From Campylobacterota bacterium (GTDB taxonomy: Bacteria > Campylobacterota > Campylobacteria > Campylobacterales > Nitratiruptoraceae): a stretch of DNA of 64,000 nucleotides. This document shows positions 30,760 through 41,719 of the stretch, piece after piece. Where the stretch lies: assembly GCA_013153715.1 (NCBI GenBank), contig JAADDW010000013.1:28765-92764 (forward strand), in the 5' to 3' direction. A program made the translations under genes and the position numbers. How positions within the stretch are numbered: position 1 is the first letter of the stretch; each line of letters begins with the position of its first letter. Under the pieces are notes generated by a model, which was not told where the DNA came from, searched no databases, and worked only from the letters and a program-made list of their open reading frames with translations.

Positions 30760-32643
30760 TTATAGTTCCTGGAGAATCTCGCTGAATACCTGGTAGCGCC
30801 CCTTTGGTGCCACCATTTTATAGACAACATCGGCGATCTGCTCTGGGAGGGCGGGGTTGAGTTTTCTGGGATTTTCGGGTCTGGAGGAGCCTACAGGCTG
30901 GAAGTTGTGGACCTCCAAGTAGGCCTTGTTGGCGGTGAGGTTTTTGTAGATCTCCAGACCGAAATCGAAGATCTCCAGGGGCTCGAAACGGCCGATGGGT
31001 CTCTGTCTGAGGAGGCTGAAGCGGTACTCCAGGCCGGCCCGCTCCAAGAGATAGTTGAACTTCATGAAGAAGGCGACGGCTCCACTGGAGAAAGGGGCCA
31101 GCACCCGATGGTAGAAGGCTTCAAAGCTTCCGTGGCCGCTCCTGGCAAACTCGTTGACGATCTGCTCCACGAGATACTTGACATCGGAGAGCGGTACAGC
31201 TCTGAGAATGGTACGCCCTCCCCGGATAGCGTGAAAACTTCCGCCCATGAGGATCTCCACCGCCTCCACCGTCTCTCCGTCGGCCCTGGCCTTGGCTCCG
31301 ATGAAGCCAATATCCCCCCACTCATGGATCCCACACCCCTTGACACAGGCGCTCCAGTGCATCCGTATCCTCCCCACATCGGGTACCTTCTGGCTCAAAT
31401 AGTGGGCGAGCTCAATGGCGTCGGGCTTGTTGGTGATGACCCCGAAGCTACACTCATTCTTCCCGGCACAGGCAACTAGGTTGTTGAAGTAGGGAGAGTG
31501 GACATTTTTGTAGCGGGTAAAGAAGGGGTGGCGGAGGACCCGGTCGATTTTGGCCTGGGGAATAGATGTGATATAGAGGTTCTGCTCGACACTCAAGCGG
31601 ATCTCCCCCCCGTGCTCTCCGGCTATTTGGGCCGCTTCGACCATGTCGCTCCCACGGAAGATTCCCCCTGGAACGACGGCGTGGAGGGCGAAATTCCCAT
31701 CCCGGAGCTGGACCCTCCCCATGGCGGGCTCGAAGTGCTCCATCCGGGCCAGGGTCTGGCCGGCCGGGGCGAAGGTGGTCCCTGCATACTCTTCCAAGGC
31801 CCTCCTGAAGTTCTCCATCCCCACCGCTTCGATGAGGAAGTAGAGGCGGTTCCTGTTGCGGTTGTCTCGGAAGCCGTATTCCCGAAAGAGCTCGATGAGT
31901 TTCTGGTAGAAGGGGACCACCTCATCAGGGGTGAGAAAGAGATCGGCATCCCTGGCGATCTTGCCCACCTTCCCTCCCAAATAGACATTGTAGCCATAGA
32001 GGCCGTCCCGCACGGCCAGGGCGAAACAGGCATCGTGGCCGTAGAGGTTGCACCGGTTGGCAAAGGAGCCAGAGATGGAGGTGTTGAACTTGCGGGGCAG
32101 GGTCCCAATCCACTGGGGCCGCTTCAAGAAGAGCTCCTGCATCGCCAGGAGGATAGGGTAGCTGGGGAGGACATTATCGAAGGCCAGGCCGTCCAAGGGA
32201 TCGGTGACAATGTTGCGCAGATTATCGATACCGGTCTGATAGGTGGTGATCCCCACCCTCTCGAAGCGCTGGAATATCTCGGGGAGATCTTCAATTCTGA
32301 TATGGCGGAGTTCCACCTGCATCCGGGTCGTCAAATCGACGGTGTCCTGGCCAAACTCCCGGGCCACCTCCCCCAGGCATACCGCCTGTTCCGGAGTGAG
32401 TCGTCCCCCCGGAATACGGACCCGCAACATGAAGCGCTCCGGAGTGAACTCATGCTTATCGAAGAGGCCAAAGTATTTGAGCAAGACCGCCTTGTCCCCT
32501 TCGCCGAGGGCTCTGTACCCCTTCTGGGCCGCCTCCAGGAGGCGTTCGTAGGCCTGCTGGGGGGTATATTGCTCCTTAATCCTCTCGACTCTGTTGATCT
32601 TTCTGCTCCGCTTCTCTCTGGCTCTGGCTAAGAGGTCGATCAT
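30760..32643 (-). CDS. nirA: Ferredoxin-type nitrite/sulfite reductase (siroheme-[4Fe-4S]), NirA-like, with a C-terminal extension
   Basis: Two nitrite/sulfite reductase repeats. Cluster/siroheme cysteines are ACAGKNEC (Cx5C) and SACVKGCG (Cx3C). 627 aa. Sits next to nasA, narK, glnB and amtB. Confidence 0.85.
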   Translation of the reverse strand: MIDLLARAREKRSRKINRVERIKEQYTPQQAYERLLEAAQKGYRALGEGDKAVLLKYFGLFDKHEFTPERFMLRVRIPGGRLTPEQAVCLGEVAREFGQDTVDLTTRMQVELRHIRIEDLPEIFQRFERVGITTYQTGIDNLRNIVTDPLDGLAFDNVLPSYPILLAMQELFLKRPQWIGTLPRKFNTSISGSFANRCNLYGHDACFALAVRDGLYGYNVYLGGKVGKIARDADLFLTPDEVVPFYQKLIELFREYGFRDNRNRNRLYFLIEAVGMENFRRALEEYAGTTFAPAGQTLARMEHFEPAMGRVQLRDGNFALHAVVPGGIFRGSDMVEAAQIAGEHGGEIRLSVEQNLYITSIPQAKIDRVLRHPFFTRYKNVHSPYFNNLVACAGKNECSFGVITNKPDAIELAHYLSQKVPDVGRIRMHWSACVKGCGIHEWGDIGFIGAKARADGETVEAVEILMGGSFHAIRGGRTILRAVPLSDVKYLVEQIVNEFARSGHGSFEAFYHRVLAPFSSGAVAFFMKFNYLLERAGLEYRFSLLRQRPIGRFEPLEIFDFGLEIYKNLTANKAYLEVHNFQPVGSSRPENPRKLNPALPEQIADVVYKMVAPKGRYQVFSEILQEL

Positions 32644-32843: not shown

Positions 32844-35129
32844 TCAGGCTTTTTGCCCCTCCTTGGCCATACTCTTCTCCCGTGATCTGCTCCCTTCCTC
32901 CATCGTCAGCTCCCCTGCGATCTCATCTTCTAAAGTGAGGCCCTGGGGAGACTTTTCGCTTATGATCTGGACCGCCGTCTGCTTGTAGTTGGGCTCGCCG
33001 CTGATGGGGTCGAAGAGGCTCTGGGTTAGGGTATTGACCAGCTGGGTACCATAGTGGAAGGGGACGAAGAGCTGGCCAGGGGCGACCAGATTGGTTACCC
33101 GCACCACCAGGTTTTCCACCCTGCCCCGGGGGCTCTTAAGGGTGATGCGGTCATAGTTTTTGACTCCGAGCCTGGCCGCATCTCTGGGATTGATGTCGAT
33201 CCAGGCCTCAGGGGCCAGACTGTCCAGGATGGCAATTTGGCCTGTCTTGGTTCGGGTGTGGAAGTGCTCCACGGTGCGGCCTGTGTTGAGTAGCAGAGGG
33301 AAGGCTCTACTCGGTGGCTCTTCCAGGGGTCTCCAATCGGCCGCTATGAAGCGGGCCCTCCCATCTCCATGGGCAAAGGGCATATCTTCGCCGTAAAGTC
33401 TGGCGCACCCTTGGGGATAGCTCTCGTTACAGGGCCACTGGATCCCGCCAAGGGCTTCGATCTTCTCATAGCTCATACCGCTATAGTCGCAGAGCCGTCC
33501 CTTGGAGATCCGCCGAATCTCTTCAAAGGCATCTCGGGGCTCCCTCCACCCTGGAAAGAGGAGATCCCGTACTCCAAAGGAGCCACTAAACTCCAGTACA
33601 ATCTCAAAGTCACTCTTGCTCTGGGCTGGAGGCTCCACCGCCTTATTGGCCTTGTTACAACGGCGCTCGCTGTTGGTATAGGTCCCCTCCTTCTCCCCCC
33701 AGGTGGCGGCGGCAAAGATCACATCGGCAATGTGGGCCGTATCGCTCATGAAGGCATCCTGTACTACCAGGAGCTCCAACTTTTTGAGGGCTCGGCGCAC
33801 TCTATTCTGATCGGGGAAGCTCACCAACGGATTGGTGCAGATGACCCAGAGGGCCTTGATCTCGCCCCGATCGATGGCGTCGATGATCTCGCCATATCTG
33901 TAGCCCCGCTTGGTTGGAACGAGATCGACTGGCACGCCCACCAAATCGGCATACTCTTGGCGATCCCTTTCACTCTCAAACTTTCGATAGCCCGGAATGG
34001 CTGAGGTGAAGCCAAACTCCCGGGTCCCCATGGCGTTGCACTGGCCCGTAATGCTGAAAGGGGCAGACCCCTCCTTACCGATTTTACCTGTCATGAGGGC
34101 TAGGTTGTTGATGGCACTCACCGTATCGGTCCCCTGGGCCGACTGGTTGATCCCCATGGTCCAGCAGATGAGGCTCTTCTCATTGGTGGCGTAGAGCTTG
34201 GCCAACTGGTAGAGGAGTTTGGTATCGAGCCCTGTGATGTAGGCCACCTCGCCGGGCTTGTAGTTCTGGATGTGGCCCACAAACTCCCTCCAGCCGTTGG
34301 TATAACCCTTGATGAAGGTCTCGTTATACCACCCCTGCTCCCAGATAATGTAGGCCAACCCATTGAGGAGAGCCAGATCGGTCCTGGGTTTTATGGGGAC
34401 ATAGATGTCGGCTAGTTGACTGGTTTTGGAGCGCCGCGGGTCGATGACGACGATCTTCTTGTTCCTCCGATTTTTCATGAGGTGGTGGACGATGATGGGG
34501 TGGTTGTCGGCCAGGTTGGCTCCGATGACCAGGACCACATCGGCTCTGGCAATATCCCCATAGCTCCCTGGGGGACCATCGGAGCCGAAGCTCTGCTTGT
34601 AACCCATGACCGCACTGGCCATACAGAGGGTCGTATTGCCATCATAATTGGTGGTCTGGAGTCCCAGCTGGACCAACTTGCCCAGGGCGTAGAACTCCTC
34701 GGTCAGGAGCTGTCCTGTGGAGATGACCGCCAGGGCCCCTTTGCCGTATCTCTCTTGGATCTGCCTGAACTTCTGGGCTGTGTAGTCAAAGGCCTCCTCC
34801 CAGCCCACATCTACCAATCTCCCCCCTTTGCGTATCTTGGGGGTGAGTGTGCGGTTGGGGGCGTAGAGCATCTGGTGTTCACTGAGCCCCTTGGGGCAGA
34901 GGGTGCCGATATTGACCGGATGTTTGGGATCCCCCTTGGTGTAGGTGGCTCTGCCCTCCTTGACACCGATATAAAGGCCGCACCCCACACCGCAATAGCC
35001 GCAGGTCGATCTGACCCAGCGATCGGGCTTTTTGGCCTTGGCGATCTTACCAAAGATGGGATCGTCTGCAAGAGCGTATCTCTCCTCCTTGATCTCCACT
35101 CCAAGGAGCTCTTTTATTCTCCGAACCAT
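32844..35129 (-). CDS. nasA: Assimilatory nitrate reductase-type molybdopterin oxidoreductase catalytic subunit (NasA/NarB-like)
   Basis: N-terminal FeS motif CGYCGVGCG...TLCPKG, and Mo-ligand Cys region NTTLCMASAVMGYKQSFG typical of the Nas/NarB/Nap clade. No signal or Tat peptide. RBS AGGGGGA, 9 nt after the upstream stop. Confidence 0.85.
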   Translation of the reverse strand: MVRRIKELLGVEIKEERYALADDPIFGKIAKAKKPDRWVRSTCGYCGVGCGLYIGVKEGRATYTKGDPKHPVNIGTLCPKGLSEHQMLYAPNRTLTPKIRKGGRLVDVGWEEAFDYTAQKFRQIQERYGKGALAVISTGQLLTEEFYALGKLVQLGLQTTNYDGNTTLCMASAVMGYKQSFGSDGPPGSYGDIARADVVLVIGANLADNHPIIVHHLMKNRRNKKIVVIDPRRSKTSQLADIYVPIKPRTDLALLNGLAYIIWEQGWYNETFIKGYTNGWREFVGHIQNYKPGEVAYITGLDTKLLYQLAKLYATNEKSLICWTMGINQSAQGTDTVSAINNLALMTGKIGKEGSAPFSITGQCNAMGTREFGFTSAIPGYRKFESERDRQEYADLVGVPVDLVPTKRGYRYGEIIDAIDRGEIKALWVICTNPLVSFPDQNRVRRALKKLELLVVQDAFMSDTAHIADVIFAAATWGEKEGTYTNSERRCNKANKAVEPPAQSKSDFEIVLEFSGSFGVRDLLFPGWREPRDAFEEIRRISKGRLCDYSGMSYEKIEALGGIQWPCNESYPQGCARLYGEDMPFAHGDGRARFIAADWRPLEEPPSRAFPLLLNTGRTVEHFHTRTKTGQIAILDSLAPEAWIDINPRDAARLGVKNYDRITLKSPRGRVENLVVRVTNLVAPGQLFVPFHYGTQLVNTLTQSLFDPISGEPNYKQTAVQIISEKSPQGLTLEDEIAGELTMEEGSRSREKSMAKEGQKA

Positions 35130-35138
35130 CTCATCCCC

Positions 35139-36716
35139 CTATGGTCGTTGTGCCCCGGCGAAGAAGTTGCCGGGCATCCCTGTCTTGACGGCAGTGGCGT
35201 AAAAGAGGAGCCGCCCGACAAACTCGGTGGCAGAGGCCAGGACCACTCCGAAGAGCTGGAAGGCGAAGGCAAATCCAAAACTCCCAGCGTTGAGGGCGAT
35301 GGTGGCGAATAGTGGTAAGACCACCGCCCCCAGGGGCAGGGAGATCTTACGAAAGTGGAAGAGTTTGCGGAAGGTGTGTTCCAGCAGATATTGAGCCCGA
35401 CCGATCTGGTAGGAGAACTCATGGTCTTCCCCTACCATCTCATAGAAGCGCTGGCTCTCAAAAAAGAGGTAAATGTGCACGCTTCCAAGCAAGATGGAGA
35501 TGGCCAGCAAAATGTTGGCCACCTGGGGGTTGCCCTCAAGGGTGGCGATGAGGGCGAGGATCTGGGTACCGATGTAGCCGGTCGAAAAGAAACGGTAGGT
35601 TGTGACAGCCCTGTTCCAGGTGGGTTTGGCTGGAATGCGGTAGATCATGGATTGGGCGTAGATGCCGTAGATCCCCACTACCGCCGTGACAGCTTCCAGG
35701 AGTAATCGCAAGGGGCCATCGATATTGAGGTAGTAGAGGAGAGTGACAACTCCCATGAGGGCGGTAAAAGCTCCAAGGGCTACAGCTTCTCGACTGAGCC
35801 AGGAAGTTTTGAGGTTCTTCATGGCGTTTACCGCCTTGATGGGGCGCCCCAGATGGAGGGCCGAAAAGGGCAAACCGATGGCGCTCAGGGCAAAAACCAG
35901 AGAGACCATGGCAAAACTCGGCTCTGGGAGCTGGGTGAATTCTGCCGCCAGATCCCCAAGAAAGAGGGCGATGAAGCCAACGAGGCTTACCTGGGTGAGG
36001 AGAGTCATGACCACTAGGGGGAGCTCTCTGTGGGCTGGGCGGATGAGGTCCCTGTCCATTGGCTCCAGATGCTCTGGCATCTCCTCGGGCAGGGTGTAGC
36101 GGGTGGTGGCCTTGGTGTACCTGGCATCGATCAAATAGGGGGCGTTGCCCTCCTTTTCCATATCCTCGGCCAGCCACCGCTCCACATCGACCACCTCAAT
36201 TTCGATGGCCCCCTCGGGGCAGGCCTGGACACAGGCTGGGGTCTGACCCGCCTCAATACGGTCATAGCACATGTGGCACTTGGTGACAATGTGGCGCTCT
36301 TCGTGGAAGATAGGGGCGTCGTAGGGGCAGTTCCAGGTACAGTACTGACACCCAATACAGGCCGGATCGTCATGGATGACGATACCATTTTCCAGCTTGA
36401 TATAGGCGTTGGTGGGACAACCTTTGAGACAGGCTGGATCGATACAGTGGTTGCAACTTATGGAGAGGAACATCTGCAATACATGGGGGAATTCTCCCCC
36501 CTCCACCTCGCCGACCCGCCGCCACTTGATCTGGGGCGGATTGTTGTTCTGCTCATTGCAGGCAACCTCACAGCAGTGACAGCCGATGCATTTGGTGGCG
36601 TCGAAATGGAAGCGGTACTGCTGACCCTCTTTGAGTGGTGGCAGTTGGAGAGAGTAACTGCCACACTGCAGGCCGGTTTGGGCTTTGTAGTCGATGAAGC
36701 TCTCGACTGCTGTCAT
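35139..36716 (-). CDS. Fusion protein: DmsB/NrfC-like four-cluster ferredoxin domain plus DmsC-like 8-TM membrane anchor
   Basis: The N-terminal ~190 aa carry four Cys groups (CIGCHCCEVAC, CNHCIDPACLKGC, CIGCQYCTWNCP, CHMCYDRIEAGQTPACVQACP). The C-terminal ~300 aa have 8 hydrophobic helices and the DmsC-type loop HLGRPIKAVNAMKNLKTSWLSRE. Confidence 0.85.
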   Translation of the reverse strand: MTAVESFIDYKAQTGLQCGSYSLQLPPLKEGQQYRFHFDATKCIGCHCCEVACNEQNNNPPQIKWRRVGEVEGGEFPHVLQMFLSISCNHCIDPACLKGCPTNAYIKLENGIVIHDDPACIGCQYCTWNCPYDAPIFHEERHIVTKCHMCYDRIEAGQTPACVQACPEGAIEIEVVDVERWLAEDMEKEGNAPYLIDARYTKATTRYTLPEEMPEHLEPMDRDLIRPAHRELPLVVMTLLTQVSLVGFIALFLGDLAAEFTQLPEPSFAMVSLVFALSAIGLPFSALHLGRPIKAVNAMKNLKTSWLSREAVALGAFTALMGVVTLLYYLNIDGPLRLLLEAVTAVVGIYGIYAQSMIYRIPAKPTWNRAVTTYRFFSTGYIGTQILALIATLEGNPQVANILLAISILLGSVHIYLFFESQRFYEMVGEDHEFSYQIGRAQYLLEHTFRKLFHFRKISLPLGAVVLPLFATIALNAGSFGFAFAFQLFGVVLASATEFVGRLLFYATAVKTGMPGNFFAGAQRP

Positions 36717-36737
36717 GCTCGCTCCAATTTTTTGGGG

Positions 36738-36776
36738 TATTGTACTAGTTTTTAGATAGTTCTACTGGCTAGTTTT
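36738..36776 (-). promoter_or_regulatory. Putative promoter (TACAAT) with two AAAAACTAG direct repeats upstream of the FeS/DmsC-nasA-nirA genes
   Basis: On the minus strand, TACAAT ends 22 nt before ATG 36716, with GGAG between. AAAAACTAG abuts the -10 box and recurs 24 nt further upstream (plus-strand CTAGTTTTT at 36744..36752 and 36768..36776). Confidence 0.45.
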
Positions 36777-37102
36777 TGTGCAACATCATTATCAATGAAT
36801 AAACAGGAGCGGGGAGTTCCAAAATTGGTTCTGGAGAGAGATCGGACTCAATCGAAAAAAGCCCCTTATCGGATCGGAGTGGTCCCAGGTAAAGGAGAAG
36901 TGGAGCTCTGGATGAGTATCCGTCGATTTTTGAAGGGATGAGAGAACTGCGGCGTAAGTGGTGGGAGTAAATTCAGGAAAACTCCCCCTTGGCTAGATTG
37001 TCCAGCAAAACCAGAATTCCCGCCTCTAGACATGGGAAGTATATCACCTCTCCTCCAGCCTAGGAGCCGAAGAGGGCGCCTCCCCGGGACTCTGAGAAGC
37101 TG

Positions 37103-38725
37103 TCATCTGAGGAGCAGAAAGAGCAGGAGCACATTCAGGAGGAAGGAGAGGATGAAGGCCATTTTATAGACCCTGACCGGCTCACGCTCAATCAGAGAGG
37201 CGTCGGGATCAAAGTAGGGTTTGACCTTGGTAGGGTGGGTGAGCTCATAGTCCATCTCGCTGTAGTGGGTGTAGCGGCGCTCCGGTTCCGGTTCAATGGC
37301 CCGCATGATGATGCTCTCCAGCCACTGAGGGACCGCTCCGTTGAACTCCTGTACCCTCTTTGCCGGCCTGAAAATCGGATTTTGGAAGGGTTCAATCTCG
37401 CCATAGGGGTAGCGGCGGGTGAGGGCTTCGTAGAGGGTGACACCAATGGCGAAGATCTCGCTGGCCTCGCTGATGGGTTCCCCCTTGAAGCGTTCGGGGG
37501 CTAGGTAGCTGGGAGTCCCTGCCCGACTTGTGATGGAGAAGATCTCGACGACAGAGCCAAAGTCTACCAGTTTGAAGACCTCCTTACCGTGGCGGCGGGT
37601 GATGAGGATATTCTCCGGTTTGATGTCGCCATGGACCAGGTTGTGTTTGAGGAGGAAGCTGGAAGAGCGTACCAGGAATTTAGCTAGTTCAATGGCCCCA
37701 TCCACATGGATAGGCCGCCTCTTGATCCGCTCCTTGAGGCTCTCGCCTTCGATGTACTCCATGATGTAGTAGCGCATGGAGCGGTTTTTGGGGATGACCG
37801 CCTTGGGGAAGAAGCCGGCCTTGAGCCGCTTGGCGTTCCAAGCCTCCTTGACGAAGAGATCCAGGAGCCCTCCATCCTCTATCGCCTCTATGGGAGGGAA
37901 TTTCATCACATACCTCTTCCCTTTCTGCTCCACCAGCCAGGTCCGCTCGTTCTGGATCAACGGTTCAATGAGGCGGTATCCATCGATGAGTTGGCCCTTT
38001 TTGAGGGTGGTGGGGATCGGGAGCTTCTGGCGCCTGAGTTCGATTTGCTTGTCGATCCCCTTGATCTCGATGACGACGGCACTGGTATCGTCTGGCAGAT
38101 TATCTCTCCACTTCCTACTGGCATATTTGACGAGGGAGGAGGCATCGATGAGGTGCTCCTGAACTTCACCCCTGTCCAGAACCGCCGTAAGGCCATCGCT
38201 GGCCACTACAATCTTATCCCCTGGACGGATAAAGTTCTCAAAGAGGTAGGGCTCCACATCTGCCTCTAGACCGATGGCCTGGGTGAGGATGTGGCTCCCC
38301 GGTTCGAGGGTATGGTCGAAGGAGAGCTTCTGGAGCACCCCATCACGGAGGAGAAAGATGGGGCTATCCCCCACATTGGCCCCATAGAGTCTGTTCCCCT
38401 GGATCACCACCATAGCCAAGGTAGTGAGCATCTCGGGCCTCCCATACTCTGCAAGTGACTCCTTATAGAGGATCTGGTTGATGTTCCTGATGAAGGTGAG
38501 GATCGACTTTTCGATCTCCCACGACCTTGGAGGGTTCTTGAAGGTGGAGAGCATGTAGCCCACCACCCGTTGGGCCCCCTGGCGTCCCGCCAGGGCGCTC
38601 CCCACTCCGTCGCAGACGATGCCGATGACCAGATCGTCGTAGGCTCTGACCCCAAAGGCGTCGCCACTGACAAGCTCTTTTCCTCTGGCCAGACCAAAGC
38701 CGGAGAGTCGTACCAGCTCCCTCAT
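37103..38725 (-). CDS. Bifunctional PP2C-type phosphatase / Hanks-type Ser/Thr protein kinase with C-terminal TM anchor
   Basis: N-terminal PP2C motifs: VCDGVGS, VASDGL, DDTSAVV. Kinase motifs: VMKF lysine, HGDIKPENILI, VDFGS, GTPSYLAPE. Terminal hydrophobic helix AFILSFLLNVLLLFLLL. The start overlaps the narK stop by 1 nt (TGATG). Confidence 0.88.
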   Translation of the reverse strand: MRELVRLSGFGLARGKELVSGDAFGVRAYDDLVIGIVCDGVGSALAGRQGAQRVVGYMLSTFKNPPRSWEIEKSILTFIRNINQILYKESLAEYGRPEMLTTLAMVVIQGNRLYGANVGDSPIFLLRDGVLQKLSFDHTLEPGSHILTQAIGLEADVEPYLFENFIRPGDKIVVASDGLTAVLDRGEVQEHLIDASSLVKYASRKWRDNLPDDTSAVVIEIKGIDKQIELRRQKLPIPTTLKKGQLIDGYRLIEPLIQNERTWLVEQKGKRYVMKFPPIEAIEDGGLLDLFVKEAWNAKRLKAGFFPKAVIPKNRSMRYYIMEYIEGESLKERIKRRPIHVDGAIELAKFLVRSSSFLLKHNLVHGDIKPENILITRRHGKEVFKLVDFGSVVEIFSITSRAGTPSYLAPERFKGEPISEASEIFAIGVTLYEALTRRYPYGEIEPFQNPIFRPAKRVQEFNGAVPQWLESIIMRAIEPEPERRYTHYSEMDYELTHPTKVKPYFDPDASLIEREPVRVYKMAFILSFLLNVLLLFLLLR

Positions 38726-39999
38726 CAGATTCTACCGCCTGCATCCAGACCCCAGGTGGTGCGCCACCGGGTCTTAACGAGACTCAGCCCCACGATGGCC
38801 AGCAAGACGATCCCAGCAAAAACATAAAAGCCTACTGCGTAGGTGCCAAAGGTAGCCTTGCTCCATCCAAGGATCTTGATGAGAGCTGTCCCCCCGAGAC
38901 CTCCGGCACACCCGACAATTCCTGTCATGATCCCCATATCTCTACCGAAGCGTTGGGGTACCAGCTGGAAGACCGCTCCGTTGGCCATCCCGAGGAAGCT
39001 CATGATCAGGAACAAGATCACAATGGCTATATGGAAGTTGTGGACAAAGGTGTTGAGGATCGCCAGGACGAAGACCCCTCCATAGAAGATGTACAAGGAT
39101 TTGACCCCTCCCAGGCGATCGGCGATGGCCCCTCCGACAGGGCGTAACATTGCCCCTGCGAAGATACACAAGGCTCCAAAGTAGCCAGCCACCACCTTAA
39201 CATTGGGTTCACTGAGGAGCTTGAGACCGATTTCGGCCATCTCCTCCTGATAGACATTCATCAAATAGACCTTCATATAGTTGGCAAAGCCGACAAACCC
39301 TCCAAAACTCACGGCGTAAAAGAGGCTGAACCACCAGGTATCCCTGTCCCGTAGGAGCTTGAGGTAATCTACCCAGCTCTTCTCGCGGGGGGTATAGACC
39401 TCCGGTGGGGCATCCTTGGCCAAGAGGATATAGGTGATGAGGATGATGGTCGAGAGGATCCCGCCTACGAGGAAAACCGCTGGCCAGCCCCAGATCTCGG
39501 CGATCTTCGGAGCGAAGAGATAGTCGATGACCACACCGATATTTCCAGCTCCCGCTAATCCCAGGACCAACCCCTGGAGGCGGGGTGGGTACCACTGGCC
39601 CGCTTGGGGCAAAGCTACGGCGAAACTGGCTCCGGCAAATCCGAGACCAGAGGCGACGGCCAAGAGCTCATAGTAGGTGATAGACTCTCCCCGAAAGTAG
39701 GTGTAAAAGAGGGAGGCGATGACGACGGACTGGGCCAAGATGGCTGTTCTCTTGGGGCCGATATTGTCCACGAGAAAGCCCAGGAGGATCCGCAGGATCG
39801 CTCCCCCCAGAATGGGAATGGCCAAGAGGGTAGCCTTCTGGTTGGGGTCCAGGAGATAGCCATGTCTGGCCAGGGATTCGGCGATCTCCGTGGCCAGGGG
39901 CCCCAGCATAGTCCAGACCATAAAGCTAAAATCGAAGTACAGGAAGGCGGCGATGAGGGTCGGCAGATGGCCTGCCCTTTTGAGCTCACCCAGTCTCAT
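38725..39999 (-). CDS. narK: MFS nitrate/nitrite transporter (NarK/NasA-transporter type, 424 aa)
   Basis: About 12 TM helices and an NNP-like Gly-rich segment. Start taken at ATG 39999 (MRLGELKRAGH), with AAGGAG 5 nt upstream. The track start 40101 adds a non-hydrophobic AT-rich extension. Confidence 0.87.
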   Translation of the reverse strand: MRLGELKRAGHLPTLIAAFLYFDFSFMVWTMLGPLATEIAESLARHGYLLDPNQKATLLAIPILGGAILRILLGFLVDNIGPKRTAILAQSVVIASLFYTYFRGESITYYELLAVASGLGFAGASFAVALPQAGQWYPPRLQGLVLGLAGAGNIGVVIDYLFAPKIAEIWGWPAVFLVGGILSTIILITYILLAKDAPPEVYTPREKSWVDYLKLLRDRDTWWFSLFYAVSFGGFVGFANYMKVYLMNVYQEEMAEIGLKLLSEPNVKVVAGYFGALCIFAGAMLRPVGGAIADRLGGVKSLYIFYGGVFVLAILNTFVHNFHIAIVILFLIMSFLGMANGAVFQLVPQRFGRDMGIMTGIVGCAGGLGGTALIKILGWSKATFGTYAVGFYVFAGIVLLAIVGLSLVKTRWRTTWGLDAGGRI

Positions 40000-40012
40000 T
40001 GAGGCTCCTTTA

Positions 40013-40045
40013 GATCTTTTACGGGATTTTATATGAAAAAAGATC
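40013..40045. promoter_or_regulatory. 8-bp inverted repeat GATCTTTT-N17-AAAAGATC bracketing the putative narK -10 box
   Basis: The arms at 40013..40020 and 40038..40045 are perfectly complementary. The minus-strand TATAAA (40028..40033) lies between them. Confidence 0.35.
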
Positions 40046-40061
40046 AACTTAGTGTTTAAGA

Positions 40062-40083
40062 TTTGATCAATAAGTTGAACAAA
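40062..40083. promoter_or_regulatory. Near-perfect palindrome TTTGATCAA-TAAG-TTGAACAAA in the narK/glnB divergent region
   Basis: 9-bp arms with one mismatch and a 4-bp centre, located between the two divergent promoters. Candidate dimeric regulator site. Confidence 0.35.
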
Positions 40084-40093
40084 TTCATAATGA

Positions 40094-40486
<393 letters not shown>

Positions 40487-40495
40487 GAGGGAACA

Positions 40496-41719
40496 ATGAA
40501 GATCGTAGCCGCTGACAATGTCTGGATCCTCACCTCAACGGCCCTCGTTCTTCTCATGAGCGTCCCCGCTCTTGCCATCTTCTATGGAGGTCTGACCAAG
40601 ACCAAGAGTATCCTCAATACGATGATGATGGTCATCGTCGCCTTCTGTATCACCTCCTTCCTCTGGCTCCTCTTTGGCTACTCCCTGGCCTTCGGTTCCG
40701 ACCTGGGAGGGGTCATTGGAAGTCTGGAATACCTCTTCCTCAACGGTATCAACCCTTCCGATCCTGCACCTGCGGCGGAGAACCTCTACCACTACCTCTT
40801 CATCTTCTTCCAGATGACCTTCGCCGCCATCACTGTGGCCCTCATGGCGGGAGCCTTTGTGGAGCGTATGAAGTTTGGAGCGTGGATGGCCATCAGCGCC
40901 CTCTGGGCCATCCTGGTCTACTTCCCAGTTGCCCACTGGATCTGGGGGGGAGGCTTTCTCTCCGACTGGGGAGTCCTCGACTTCGCAGGGGGGTTAGTGG
41001 TCCATGAGACCAGCGGGGTCTCAGCCCTGGTAGGAGCCATCCTTCTCGGAGCCAGAAAGGAGAATGTGATGCAACCCTCCAATCTCCCTCTGGTCGGAAT
41101 TGGAACGGGGCTCCTCTGGTTCGGCTGGTTCGGTTTCAACGGGGGGAGCGCCCTCGCCATGAACGCCCAGGCTGTCAGCGCCGCCTTCGTTACCACAGTG
41201 GCCGCCTTTGTTGGAGGCTTCGTCTGGATGGTGCTGGAATGGATCAAATTCAAGAAACCCACCTCCCTCGGGCTCTTCACAGGGGTCATCGCCGGACTGG
41301 CGACGATCACTCCTGCTAGTGGCTTCGTCGACATCTTTGGAGCTGTACTCATCGGGACCATAGCGGCCCTCGTCTGTTTCTGGGCAGTTGTCTCCCTCAA
41401 ACAGCGGTTTGGCTATGACGACAGCCTCGATGTCTTCGGTGTCCACGGTGTCGGCGGAATGACGGGAGCCCTCCTCCTCGCCCTCTTCGCCAAGCCCGAA
41501 GTCGCCGATGTGAAGGGGCTCTTCTTCGGAGGAGGGCTGGGACAACTGGGCTCCCAGTTGGCAGGAATTCTCGTCGTGGGCCTCTATAGCCTCCTCATGA
41601 CAGTTCTCATCTTCAAGGTGGTCGATCGGTTCATGGGTCTCCGGGTCGATCGAGACGCTGAGATCGAAGGGCTCGACGAGGCGATCCACGGCGAACGGGC
41701 CTACCTGAAGGAGTACTAG
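40496..41719 (+). CDS. amtB: Ammonium transporter (Amt family)
   Basis: 407 aa with about 11 TM helices and Amt signatures (DFAGGLVVHETSGVSALVGA, FGVHGVGGMTGALL). 9 nt after glnB. Confidence 0.95.
   Translation: MKIVAADNVWILTSTALVLLMSVPALAIFYGGLTKTKSILNTMMMVIVAFCITSFLWLLFGYSLAFGSDLGGVIGSLEYLFLNGINPSDPAPAAENLYHYLFIFFQMTFAAITVALMAGAFVERMKFGAWMAISALWAILVYFPVAHWIWGGGFLSDWGVLDFAGGLVVHETSGVSALVGAILLGARKENVMQPSNLPLVGIGTGLLWFGWFGFNGGSALAMNAQAVSAAFVTTVAAFVGGFVWMVLEWIKFKKPTSLGLFTGVIAGLATITPASGFVDIFGAVLIGTIAALVCFWAVVSLKQRFGYDDSLDVFGVHGVGGMTGALLLALFAKPEVADVKGLFFGGGLGQLGSQLAGILVVGLYSLLMTVLIFKVVDRFMGLRVDRDAEIEGLDEAIHGERAYLKEY

Follow-up and report, generated by a model that had tools for sequence, protein, structure and literature searches.

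A membrane-anchored partner for a Nas-like molybdoenzyme: a candidate cytoplasm-facing quinol:nitrate oxidoreductase for nitrate assimilation in Campylobacterota and other bacteria

Introduction

From where does a Nas-like nitrate reductase, predicted to reside in the cytoplasm, receive its electrons if the gene next to it encodes an iron-sulfur (FeS) protein fused to a membrane anchor? This question is raised by a gene pair in a 64,000-nucleotide (nt) stretch of DNA from a Campylobacterota bacterium of the Nitratiruptoraceae (GenBank assembly GCA_013153715.1, contig JAADDW010000013.1, positions 28,765 to 92,764), which as a whole is referred to here as the window. One gene encodes a protein of 525 amino acids (aa) that joins an FeS domain to a DmsC-type anchor (the fused protein) and the other a molybdopterin oxidoreductase catalytic subunit of 761 aa (MopB). 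An initial annotation of the locus proposed that the two constitute a menaquinol-driven nitrate reductase dedicated to assimilation and held this architecture to be uncharacterised.

According to Wells et al. 2020, the clade of NasA/NasC, AioA, NapA and one formate dehydrogenase lineage is never found with canonical four-cluster or membrane-anchor subunits (PMC7331816). Similarly, a 2021 catalogue of NrfD-like complexes contains no nitrate reductase and no fusion, and lists SoeABC as the one member facing the N-side, i.e. the cytoplasm (PMC8076601), and genome papers on Campylobacterota record 'NasAB/NarB + NirA' (PMC4288042, PMC7952632). An FeS/DmsC partner for a Nas enzyme is not described in the full-text literature that we searched, of which subscription journals were not part, so that an earlier mention is possible; two relevant surveys omit such a module, in agreement with the initial annotation. 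Combining domain, structure, phylogenetic and gene-context data, we suggest that the two polypeptides, with three modules between them, probably function as a cytoplasm-facing (mena)quinol:nitrate oxidoreductase for assimilation.

Results

The fused protein and its gene

The fused gene (35139..36716) and the MopB gene (32844..35129) lie on the minus strand and are separated by a 9-nt spacer (GGGGATGAG; 35130..35138, minus strand), which extends from the TAG of the fused gene to the ATG of the MopB gene and includes a purine-rich, ribosome-binding-like stretch. Both open reading frames (ORFs) and the gap are as initially annotated. The 9-nt spacing suggests translational coupling, and in orthologous loci the spacing is mostly between a 4-nt overlap and a few tens of nt.

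Pfam, BLASTP, AlphaFold2 and Foldseek together describe the fused protein as an electron-input subunit, in which an N-terminal DmsB-like ferredoxin domain with four [4Fe-4S] clusters precedes a C-terminal DmsC-type anchor with eight transmembrane (TM) helices. The Pfam matches are Fer4_11 at residues 82-173 (E 1e-23) and DmsC (PF04976) at residues 230-506 (82.5 bits; cut-off, 22.3); the NCBIfam matches are all below threshold, with DmsB leading (TIGR02951, 163.8 bits against a cut-off of 214.1). In BLASTP alignments the FeS part is 42% identical to Escherichia coli DmsB and the anchor 35% identical to E. coli DmsC over TM1-5. Within the FeS domain (residues ~33-177; 36186..36620, minus strand), which was delimited by alignment to DmsB and has four CxxCxxCxxxC(P)-type groups, all 16 cluster Cys align with those of E. 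coli DmsB (C43/46/49/53, C88/91/96/100, C120/123/126/130 and C147/150/162/166), and they are 99-100% conserved in 140 diverse homologues, i.e. representatives at <=50% identity together with Verrucomicrobia members.

The membrane domain (residues ~230-507; 35196..36029, minus strand) was delimited by AlphaFold2 and Pfam DmsC. In the AlphaFold2 model, which was based on 82 homologues and has a mean confidence score (pLDDT) of 74.6, it is mostly modelled at 86-98 and consists of eight helices (residues 232-260, 268-288, 306-329, 335-360, 369-393, 397-427, 450-476 and 480-507). Foldseek searches of the PDB returned PsrB, ArrB and EbdB for the N-terminal part, and for the membrane part PsrC (2vpw_C, TM-score 0.57, target-normalised) as well as ActC/ActF of alternative complex III (ACIII). 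A PDB sequence search with the fused protein matched the FeS domain alone, and the anchor was recognised by fold alone. The fusion described in the initial annotation, with its 16 Cys in four motifs and its HLGRP...SWLSRE loop, is therefore upheld by alignment and model. Among plasmids, a search of the collection with the fused protein returned separate DmsB genes only and zero full-length fusions.

A predicted quinol site

The loop between TM2 and TM3 (35787..35864, minus strand), which lies on the FeS-domain side of the membrane domain, is predicted to bind quinol. Its S285, H288, S305 and E310 align with S62, H65, S82 and E87 of E. coli DmsC, with S285-A-L-H288-L-G-R-P opposite S62-M-L-H65-L-G-S-P and S305-W-L-S-R-E310 opposite S82-A-L-S-N-E87 (BLASTP). 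H288, S305 and E310 are invariant in the 140 diverse homologues and R502, the equivalent of DmsC R271 in TM helix 8 (TMH8), is 98% conserved. S62, H65, S82 and E87 are tabulated as the quinone-site residues of DmsC by Calisto and Pereira, replacement of H65 blocks quinol oxidation, and R271 is where the proposed proton half-channels meet (PMC8076601). A survey of ORFs and domains in the window cluster detected no gene for a ferredoxin, a flavodoxin or a NasB-type donor. Given that the quinol-site residues of DmsC are conserved and that the window has no other donor gene, we infer that quinol would be the electron donor of the fused protein.

Orientation and export

No N-terminal hydrophobic stretch is present in the fused protein, and a twin-arginine motif followed by a hydrophobic core is found in 0 of 119 full-length fused representatives. 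MopB has a conserved 42-residue N-terminal extension (35004..35129, minus strand; consensus M..KIKDFLGFDIKEEKYALVDDPIFGK...KKPDKWV) that is amphipathic and without a hydrophobic core. It begins with MVRRIKELLG, and in place of this RR (residues 3-4) most of ~65 orthologues have KK or xK; the maximum 12-residue hydropathy of the N-terminus is below 1.2. A twin-arginine translocation (Tat) signal was found neither in the ~65 orthologue N-termini nor in the MopB partners from distant lineages. Export by the Tat pathway was rejected on these grounds, in line with the initial annotation, which had ascribed no signal or Tat peptide to either protein.

Lysine plus arginine (K+R) counts in the loops, with helix boundaries taken from the AlphaFold2 model, are on average 13.0 on the side of the FeS domain and quinol site versus 0.7 on the other side in 82 close homologues, and 12.7 versus 0.9 in the 140 diverse sequences, all 140 of which are biased alike. 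In the control, E. coli DmsC, the corresponding numbers are 2 and 6. Weiner et al. 1993 are reported to have placed the termini of E. coli DmsC in the periplasm. Because the charge bias is opposite to that of E. coli DmsC and export signals are absent, a position on the cytoplasmic side is predicted both for the FeS domain, as in the initial annotation, and for the quinol pocket, with the anchor inverted relative to DmsC.

Identity of the catalytic subunit

MopB, which carries the NCBI name 'nitrate reductase', is assigned by Pfam, NCBIfam, tree and motif data to the Nas/Nap-type nitrate reductases with a molybdenum-bis(pyranopterin guanine dinucleotide) (Mo-bisPGD) cofactor, and is predicted to be cytoplasmic. 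It has the Pfam domains Molybdop_Fe4S4 (63.7 bits), Molybdopterin and Molydop_binding. The motif for the N-terminal [4Fe-4S] cluster (FS0), C43-x2-C46-x3-C50...C78 (34896..35003, minus strand), includes CGYCGVGCG and conforms to the Cx2Cx3Cx24-27C pattern of the Nas/Nap clade, and the Mo-ligand motif is TLCMASA (Cys169, Met170; 34611..34631, minus strand). Both motifs had been pointed out in the initial annotation and are confirmed by Pfam and alignment. C-M-(A/S)-S is common to MopB and all NapA, NasA and NarB references, whereas the four FdhF references have C-H, C-Q or selenocysteine-H. The best match with a solved structure is monomeric NapA of Desulfovibrio desulfuricans (462 bits), in which an 'lcmasav' stretch is kept that we take to contain the Mo ligand Cys140.

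In tblastn searches of the plasmid collection, annotated assimilatory nitrate reductases are at the top with 35-38% identity (narB on Sinorhizobium meliloti pSymB, Pantoea and Ralstonia genes adjoining nirB(D), and a Streptomyces fusion of nitrate reductase and flavoprotein), followed by FdhF and NapA at 29-33%. Among the NCBIfam models, NasC (530 versus a cut-off of 1100) and NasA_Halo (501 versus 1000) scored under their cut-offs, as did NapA (415).

In trees built by neighbour-joining from Kimura distances, with 200 bootstraps and with Thermus YdeP as the outgroup, Nas, Nap and MopB are together split from FdhF with 98-99% bootstrap, a value that refers to neighbour-joining with small sampling; together with C-M-A-S, this separates MopB from the formate dehydrogenases, with which a clustering had been named as a possible refutation. 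All MopBs encoded beside fused genes (eight from Campylobacterota and those of loci L082, L084, L100, L101, L103, L175 and L180) form one clade with 100% bootstrap, distinct from NapA, from proteobacterial NasA/NarB and from the actinobacterial type. The position of this clade among the three has a bootstrap of 28-42%. The main groups of the fused-protein tree and the MopB tree are congruent.

Distribution and conserved context

The fused family has more than 5,212 matches at E <=1e-10, comprises 735 clusters (50% identity, E <=1e-30) and is present in at least 556 species genomes. Because the gene pair recurs in hundreds of genomes, the pairing is not a matter of chance. The best 80 genome loci are all from Campylobacterota (Sulfurimonas, Sulfurovum, Nitratifractor, Nitratiruptor, Hydrogenimonas, Arcobacter and Sulfuricurvum). 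Linkage to MopB was counted in the 69 of these loci with at least 1.5 kb of downstream sequence: MopB starts at most 200 nt downstream in 41 of them, with an overlap of 4 nt in 11 of the 41, and is within 8 kb in a further 12. Across the best 80 loci, NarK is found in 43, NirA in 42 and a phosphatase/kinase fusion (described below) in 33.

Outside this set, the fused gene is followed by MopB in five of five distant representatives (33-40% identity), which adjoin genes for NarK or NrtABC, for NirBD or for NirA with a CysJ-like protein, for AmtB/GlnB and for molybdenum cofactor (Moco) biosynthesis. Of 41 loci from a metagenome scan in which the fusion is full-length and the sequence reaches far enough downstream, 35 have MopB directly downstream of the fused gene, the six exceptions being the most distant fused proteins (27-33% identity), and 29 of the 39 metagenome loci of at least 8 kb have nitrogen-assimilation neighbours. 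Relatives with names come from Gimesia spp., Symmachiella and Polystyrenella (Planctomycetota), Sorangium (Myxococcota), and Chthoniobacter and Terrimicrobiaceae (Verrucomicrobiota). The cluster is present in the complete genomes of Gimesia panareensis and Sorangium, with MopB directly downstream, and in the draft genome of Sulfurimonas gotlandica GD1, with MopB ~0.7 kb downstream of the fused gene. In Campylobacterota, Planctomycetota, Verrucomicrobiota and Myxococcota alike, the pair is found beside genes for nitrate uptake and nitrite reduction. The survey thus finds the fused gene beside MopB/nirA in Campylobacterota and beyond; the module is special neither to the window nor to the phylum and is widespread. 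The named relatives of the fused protein carry the annotation 'anaerobic DMSO reductase chain B', 'DmsC/YnfH family anchor' or 'formate dehydrogenase iron-sulfur subunit'.

A distant fused subfamily of 643-670 aa, represented by two of the six metagenome exceptions (L175 4638-8842, L180 4551-8671), has a C-M-A-S MopB of the same clade upstream, i.e. in A-then-BC order, and nitrogen-assimilation genes are absent from the neighbours at both loci. In three loci a second MopB of 658 aa is encoded upstream of the fused gene, immediately at L022 (5754-7754) and L023 (5847-7820) and at a distance of ~3.8 kb at L029 (2196-4160). This 658-aa MopB falls with proteobacterial NasA/NarB in the tree (90-95% bootstrap), so that some Campylobacterota may have two distinct nitrate reductases of the assimilatory type.

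Neighbouring genes

The gene order on the minus strand is narK, PP2C/kinase, fused gene, MopB, nirA, and glnB and amtB diverge from this cluster. Of these neighbours, nirA, narK, glnB and amtB had been correctly identified in the initial annotation, which did not mention the fusion of a protein phosphatase 2C (PP2C) and a Ser/Thr kinase. NirA (627 aa; 30760..32643, minus strand; Pfam, NCBIfam) is a sirohaem/[4Fe-4S] nitrite reductase. The ferredoxin-nitrite reductase profile stops near its residue 497, leaving a C-terminal extension of ~115 aa (about 30760-31105) that is kept among Campylobacterota orthologues; a Pfam search with this extension gave zero family matches. NarK (38725..40101, minus strand; TIGR00886, 249 bits) is a nitrate/nitrite transporter that belongs to the major facilitator superfamily. 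The nitrogen-status gene glnB (P-II; 40121..40486) and the ammonium-uptake gene amtB (40496..41719), both identified by Pfam, are on the plus strand.

The PP2C/kinase fusion (540 aa; 37103..38725, minus strand; Pfam) has a C-terminal TM helix and is encoded between narK and the fused gene, with its start codon overlapping the narK stop. It is next to narK in 33 of the 80 Campylobacterota loci and also occurs in Verrucomicrobia-type clusters; further copies are at L101 (2020-3654), L127, L144, L147 and L162. A literature search found no published description of the narK-PP2C/kinase pair. The fusion may be a candidate post-translational regulator of nitrate uptake.

Upstream of the fused gene, the 386-nt intergenic stretch at 36717-37102 contains a GC stem followed by a T-run (~36850-36870) that resembles a terminator. 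Should this element end transcription of narK and the kinase gene, the fused gene would be transcribed together with the nitrate reductase gene as a unit of their own. An Rfam scan of 30.0-42.5 kb gave zero RNA families, and promoter and terminator motif counts in this region were at the level of shuffled sequence.

Discussion

The gene content of the pair is that of a complex iron-sulfur molybdoenzyme (CISM), with a Mo-bisPGD subunit, a four-cluster FeS module and a quinone-interacting anchor in two polypeptides. The context is assimilatory: Tat signals are absent, NarK and NirA are encoded in the window and a like context is found across phyla. The conserved partner of MopB is the fused FeS-DmsC protein and not the ferredoxin, flavodoxin or NAD(P)H flavoprotein that usually serves Nas enzymes, and the termini, the quinol site and the FeS partner, which are on the periplasmic side in DmsC, are predicted from the charge bias to be on the cytoplasmic side. 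The menaquinol-driven, assimilatory function proposed in the initial annotation is supported by these in silico data, the part that concerns the quinol donor being carried by the conserved quinol-site residues.

We suggest the following scheme: (i) the fused protein would be inserted in the membrane such that its FeS domain and its quinol site both face the cytoplasm, (ii) (mena)quinol would be oxidised at the S285/H288/S305/E310 pocket, (iii) electrons would pass through the four [4Fe-4S] clusters to FS0 and on to the Mo-bisPGD (Cys169) of the docked MopB, with which we infer that the fused protein forms a physical complex, and (iv) nitrate imported by NarK would be reduced to nitrite by MopB in the cytoplasm, and NirA would take nitrite to ammonium. 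The reaction would presumably be electroneutral unless an NrfD-type proton path is used, because proton release and proton consumption are both on the N-side. In sulfur- and hydrogen-oxidising Campylobacterota, which fill the quinone pool directly, the use of quinol (about -75 mV) for nitrate (+420 mV) would spare costly ferredoxin or NAD(P)H.

Extended beyond the window, the data would define a third, widespread class of bacterial assimilatory nitrate reductase, i.e. a membrane-bound quinol:nitrate oxidoreductase that combines a dedicated Nas-like clade with a fused DmsBC/SoeBC-like module in inverted orientation. In Campylobacterota, Planctomycetota, Verrucomicrobiota, Myxococcota and others, such a class would tie nitrogen assimilation directly to the quinone pool of respiration, and it may involve NrfD-type proton movement. 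For this wider proposal we see the chances of its being right and of its being wrong as even.

Comparison with known systems

MopB shares with the Nas/NarB enzymes the N-terminal [4Fe-4S] and C-M-A-S motifs, the cytoplasmic location, a size of about 700-760 aa and the proximity of nitrite reductase and nitrate transporter genes, and is 35-38% identical to the products of plasmid-borne NarB/NasA genes. It differs from them in belonging to a clade of its own (100% bootstrap), apart from proteobacterial NasA/NarB and the actinobacterial NasN-like enzyme, in the family-specific 42-aa N-terminal extension, in missing the NCBIfam cut-offs, and in having a membrane FeS/anchor protein as partner and not a ferredoxin, a flavodoxin or a NasB/NasC-type flavoprotein.

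The closest layout is that of SoeABC of Allochromatium vinosum and Aquifex aeolicus, a likeness drawn from its published description. SoeABC is an N-side CISM without signal peptides, its anchor with eight TM helices is predicted to be inverted, and the quinone site of the anchor uses H65, S82 and E87 as in DmsC (PMC8076601). The initial annotation had stated that FeS plus anchor modules normally serve periplasm-facing enzymes; this holds for most of them, but SoeABC provides a precedent for a cytoplasm-facing anchor. In contrast to MopB, SoeA is of another molybdopterin oxidoreductase lineage and oxidises sulfite, with electrons flowing to quinone, whereas electrons are here predicted to flow from quinol to nitrate; moreover, SoeB and SoeC are listed as separate subunits, whereas the corresponding modules in the window are one polypeptide.

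With E. coli DmsABC the window module has in common the similarity to DmsB (42%, with 16 Cys) and DmsC (35%), eight TM helices and the equivalents of H65, E87, S62, S82 and R271. However, DmsAB is Tat-exported and faces the periplasm, the K+R bias between the loops runs the other way, an S/N-oxide reductase with Ser as ligand is the catalytic partner, and the genes are separate and in the order A-B-C. NarGHI is likewise a cytoplasm-facing, membrane-anchored quinol:nitrate oxidoreductase, and mycobacterial NarGHI also serves assimilation. The Asp-ligated NarG is, however, of an unrelated lineage (41 bits versus the window MopB), and NarI is a di-haem cytochrome b with a P-side, i.e. periplasmic, quinol site and a proton-motive redox loop. 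In the epsilonproteobacterial Nap system, a four-cluster ferredoxin and a membrane protein, NapG and NapH, feed menaquinol electrons to an enzyme of the Nap/Nas clade; NapH differs in not being of the NrfD/DmsC type and the Nap system in being periplasmic and Tat-dependent.

Observations that weigh against the proposal and alternative explanations

Several observations weigh against the proposed quinol:nitrate oxidoreductase. Since 16 of the 69 Campylobacterota loci have a fused gene with no MopB within 1.5-8 kb downstream (L008, L018, L020, L021, L040, L041, L045, L046, L050, L051, L055, L058, L059, L069, L070, L071), the linkage may not be obligatory or the fused protein may have another role. 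At L008, L020, L021, L045 and L051 the neighbours are unrelated (e.g. FtsK, cobalamin genes, a tRNA synthetase and a haem-copper oxidase-like gene), and at L008 and L021 narK and nirA are still adjacent but MopB is not. A shared alternative partner of the orphan fused genes was rejected, as these neighbours are unrelated housekeeping genes with nothing in common; either these genomes have MopB relocated to another place or another partner can be served by the fused protein. Conversely, the MopB clade has a Cetobacterium member without a fused partner; this gene, on plasmid p1 of Cetobacterium somerae, is followed by an anion-channel gene of the SLAC1/TehA type (L097 6084-7007) and Moco biosynthesis genes. 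The top NCBIfam match of MopB is Fdh-alpha (600 versus a cut-off of 666), and the NasC, NasA and DmsB cut-offs are missed; the trees are simple neighbour-joining trees with few references; and AlphaFold2 modelled the FeS domain at low confidence. Finally, in G. panareensis (CP037421.1) a gene for a 256-aa FAD_binding_6/NAD_binding_1 protein, which resembles ferredoxin-NADP reductase (FNR), is directly upstream of the fused gene (L184 7224-7994). This FNR-like flavoprotein may be an entry point for NAD(P)H in some Planctomycetes; as a general donor it was rejected, with such a gene beside the fused gene in only 2 of 186 loci (L184, L109).

The Gimesia arrangement bears on the main rival explanation, which we consider rather unlikely: an assimilatory nitrate reductase in which the DmsC domain is a mere tether and the FeS domain receives its electrons from ferredoxin or from an NAD(P)H-flavoprotein as a soluble donor. 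Campylobacterota with the reductive tricarboxylic acid (rTCA) cycle make reduced ferredoxin. CysJ-like genes are found in many Verrucomicrobia-type clusters, but always with NirA, their expected partner, and the FNR-like gene, as stated, is rare. Characterised Nas enzymes do use ferredoxin, flavodoxin or NAD(P)H (PMC7331816); however, a tether would not need the quinol-site residues and the TMH8 arginine that are 98-100% conserved (n=140), and a donor gene is missing from the window cluster. Alternatively, the enzyme could be a dissimilatory or redox-balancing cytoplasmic nitrate reductase, i.e. a functional analogue of NarGHI that gains energy via an NrfD-type proton pathway. The architecture is that of respiratory CISMs, NrfD-like subunits have been proposed to move ions (PMC8076601), R502 at the proposed half-channel junction is conserved, and the distant fused subfamily (L175, L180) lacks nitrogen-assimilation neighbours. 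This explanation is less probable than the tether and unlikely in the given context: in four phyla the pair is consistently linked to NirA or NirBD, NarK or NrtABC, AmtB and GlnB, Nap is the enzyme that published genome studies of Sulfurovum- and Sulfurimonas-type Campylobacterota assign to respiration, and an N-side quinol site would give a simple redox loop without charge separation.

Two further explanations appear far less probable. The Fdh-alpha match and the 28-42% bootstrap for the position of MopB within the Nas/Nap radiation would fit a substrate other than nitrate, e.g. formate, chlorate, selenate or arsenite, in a neighbourhood that is coincidental. Against this very unlikely explanation stand the C-M-A-S motif, which is not the C-H or selenocysteine-H of formate dehydrogenases, the well-supported split from FdhF and the conservation of the nitrogen-assimilation context across phyla; identity as a formate dehydrogenase was rejected on motif and tree. 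Least probable of all is a periplasm-facing complex like DmsABC that is exported by an unrecognised route. Although most DmsC/NrfD-type complexes are on the P-side (PMC8076601), neither subunit has a Tat or Sec signal in the lineages examined, the loop charges are strongly biased in the direction opposite to E. coli DmsC, and the accompanying genes specify NarK as an importer and a cytoplasmic NirA.

Implications

The module is present in cultured organisms, i.e. Gimesia, Sorangium and Sulfurimonas gotlandica. For annotation, its implication is that the partner now appears as 'DMSO reductase anchor/chain B' or 'formate dehydrogenase iron-sulfur subunit' and that metagenome surveys count the enzyme as NasAB or NarB. 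If our proposal is correct, the module would join SoeABC as a second inverted NrfD-type complex and would contradict the notion that canonical FeS and anchor subunits are never paired with the Nas/Nap/Fdh clade. A quinol-fed, membrane-anchored class would then constitute a third type of assimilatory nitrate reductase beside those that depend on ferredoxin/flavodoxin and on NAD(P)H, and the energy that nitrate assimilation costs would have to be estimated anew in the chemolithoautotrophs of vents and oxic-anoxic interfaces (Sulfurimonas, Sulfurovum, Nitratiruptor) as well as in the abundant Planctomycetes and Verrucomicrobia of soil and marine environments.

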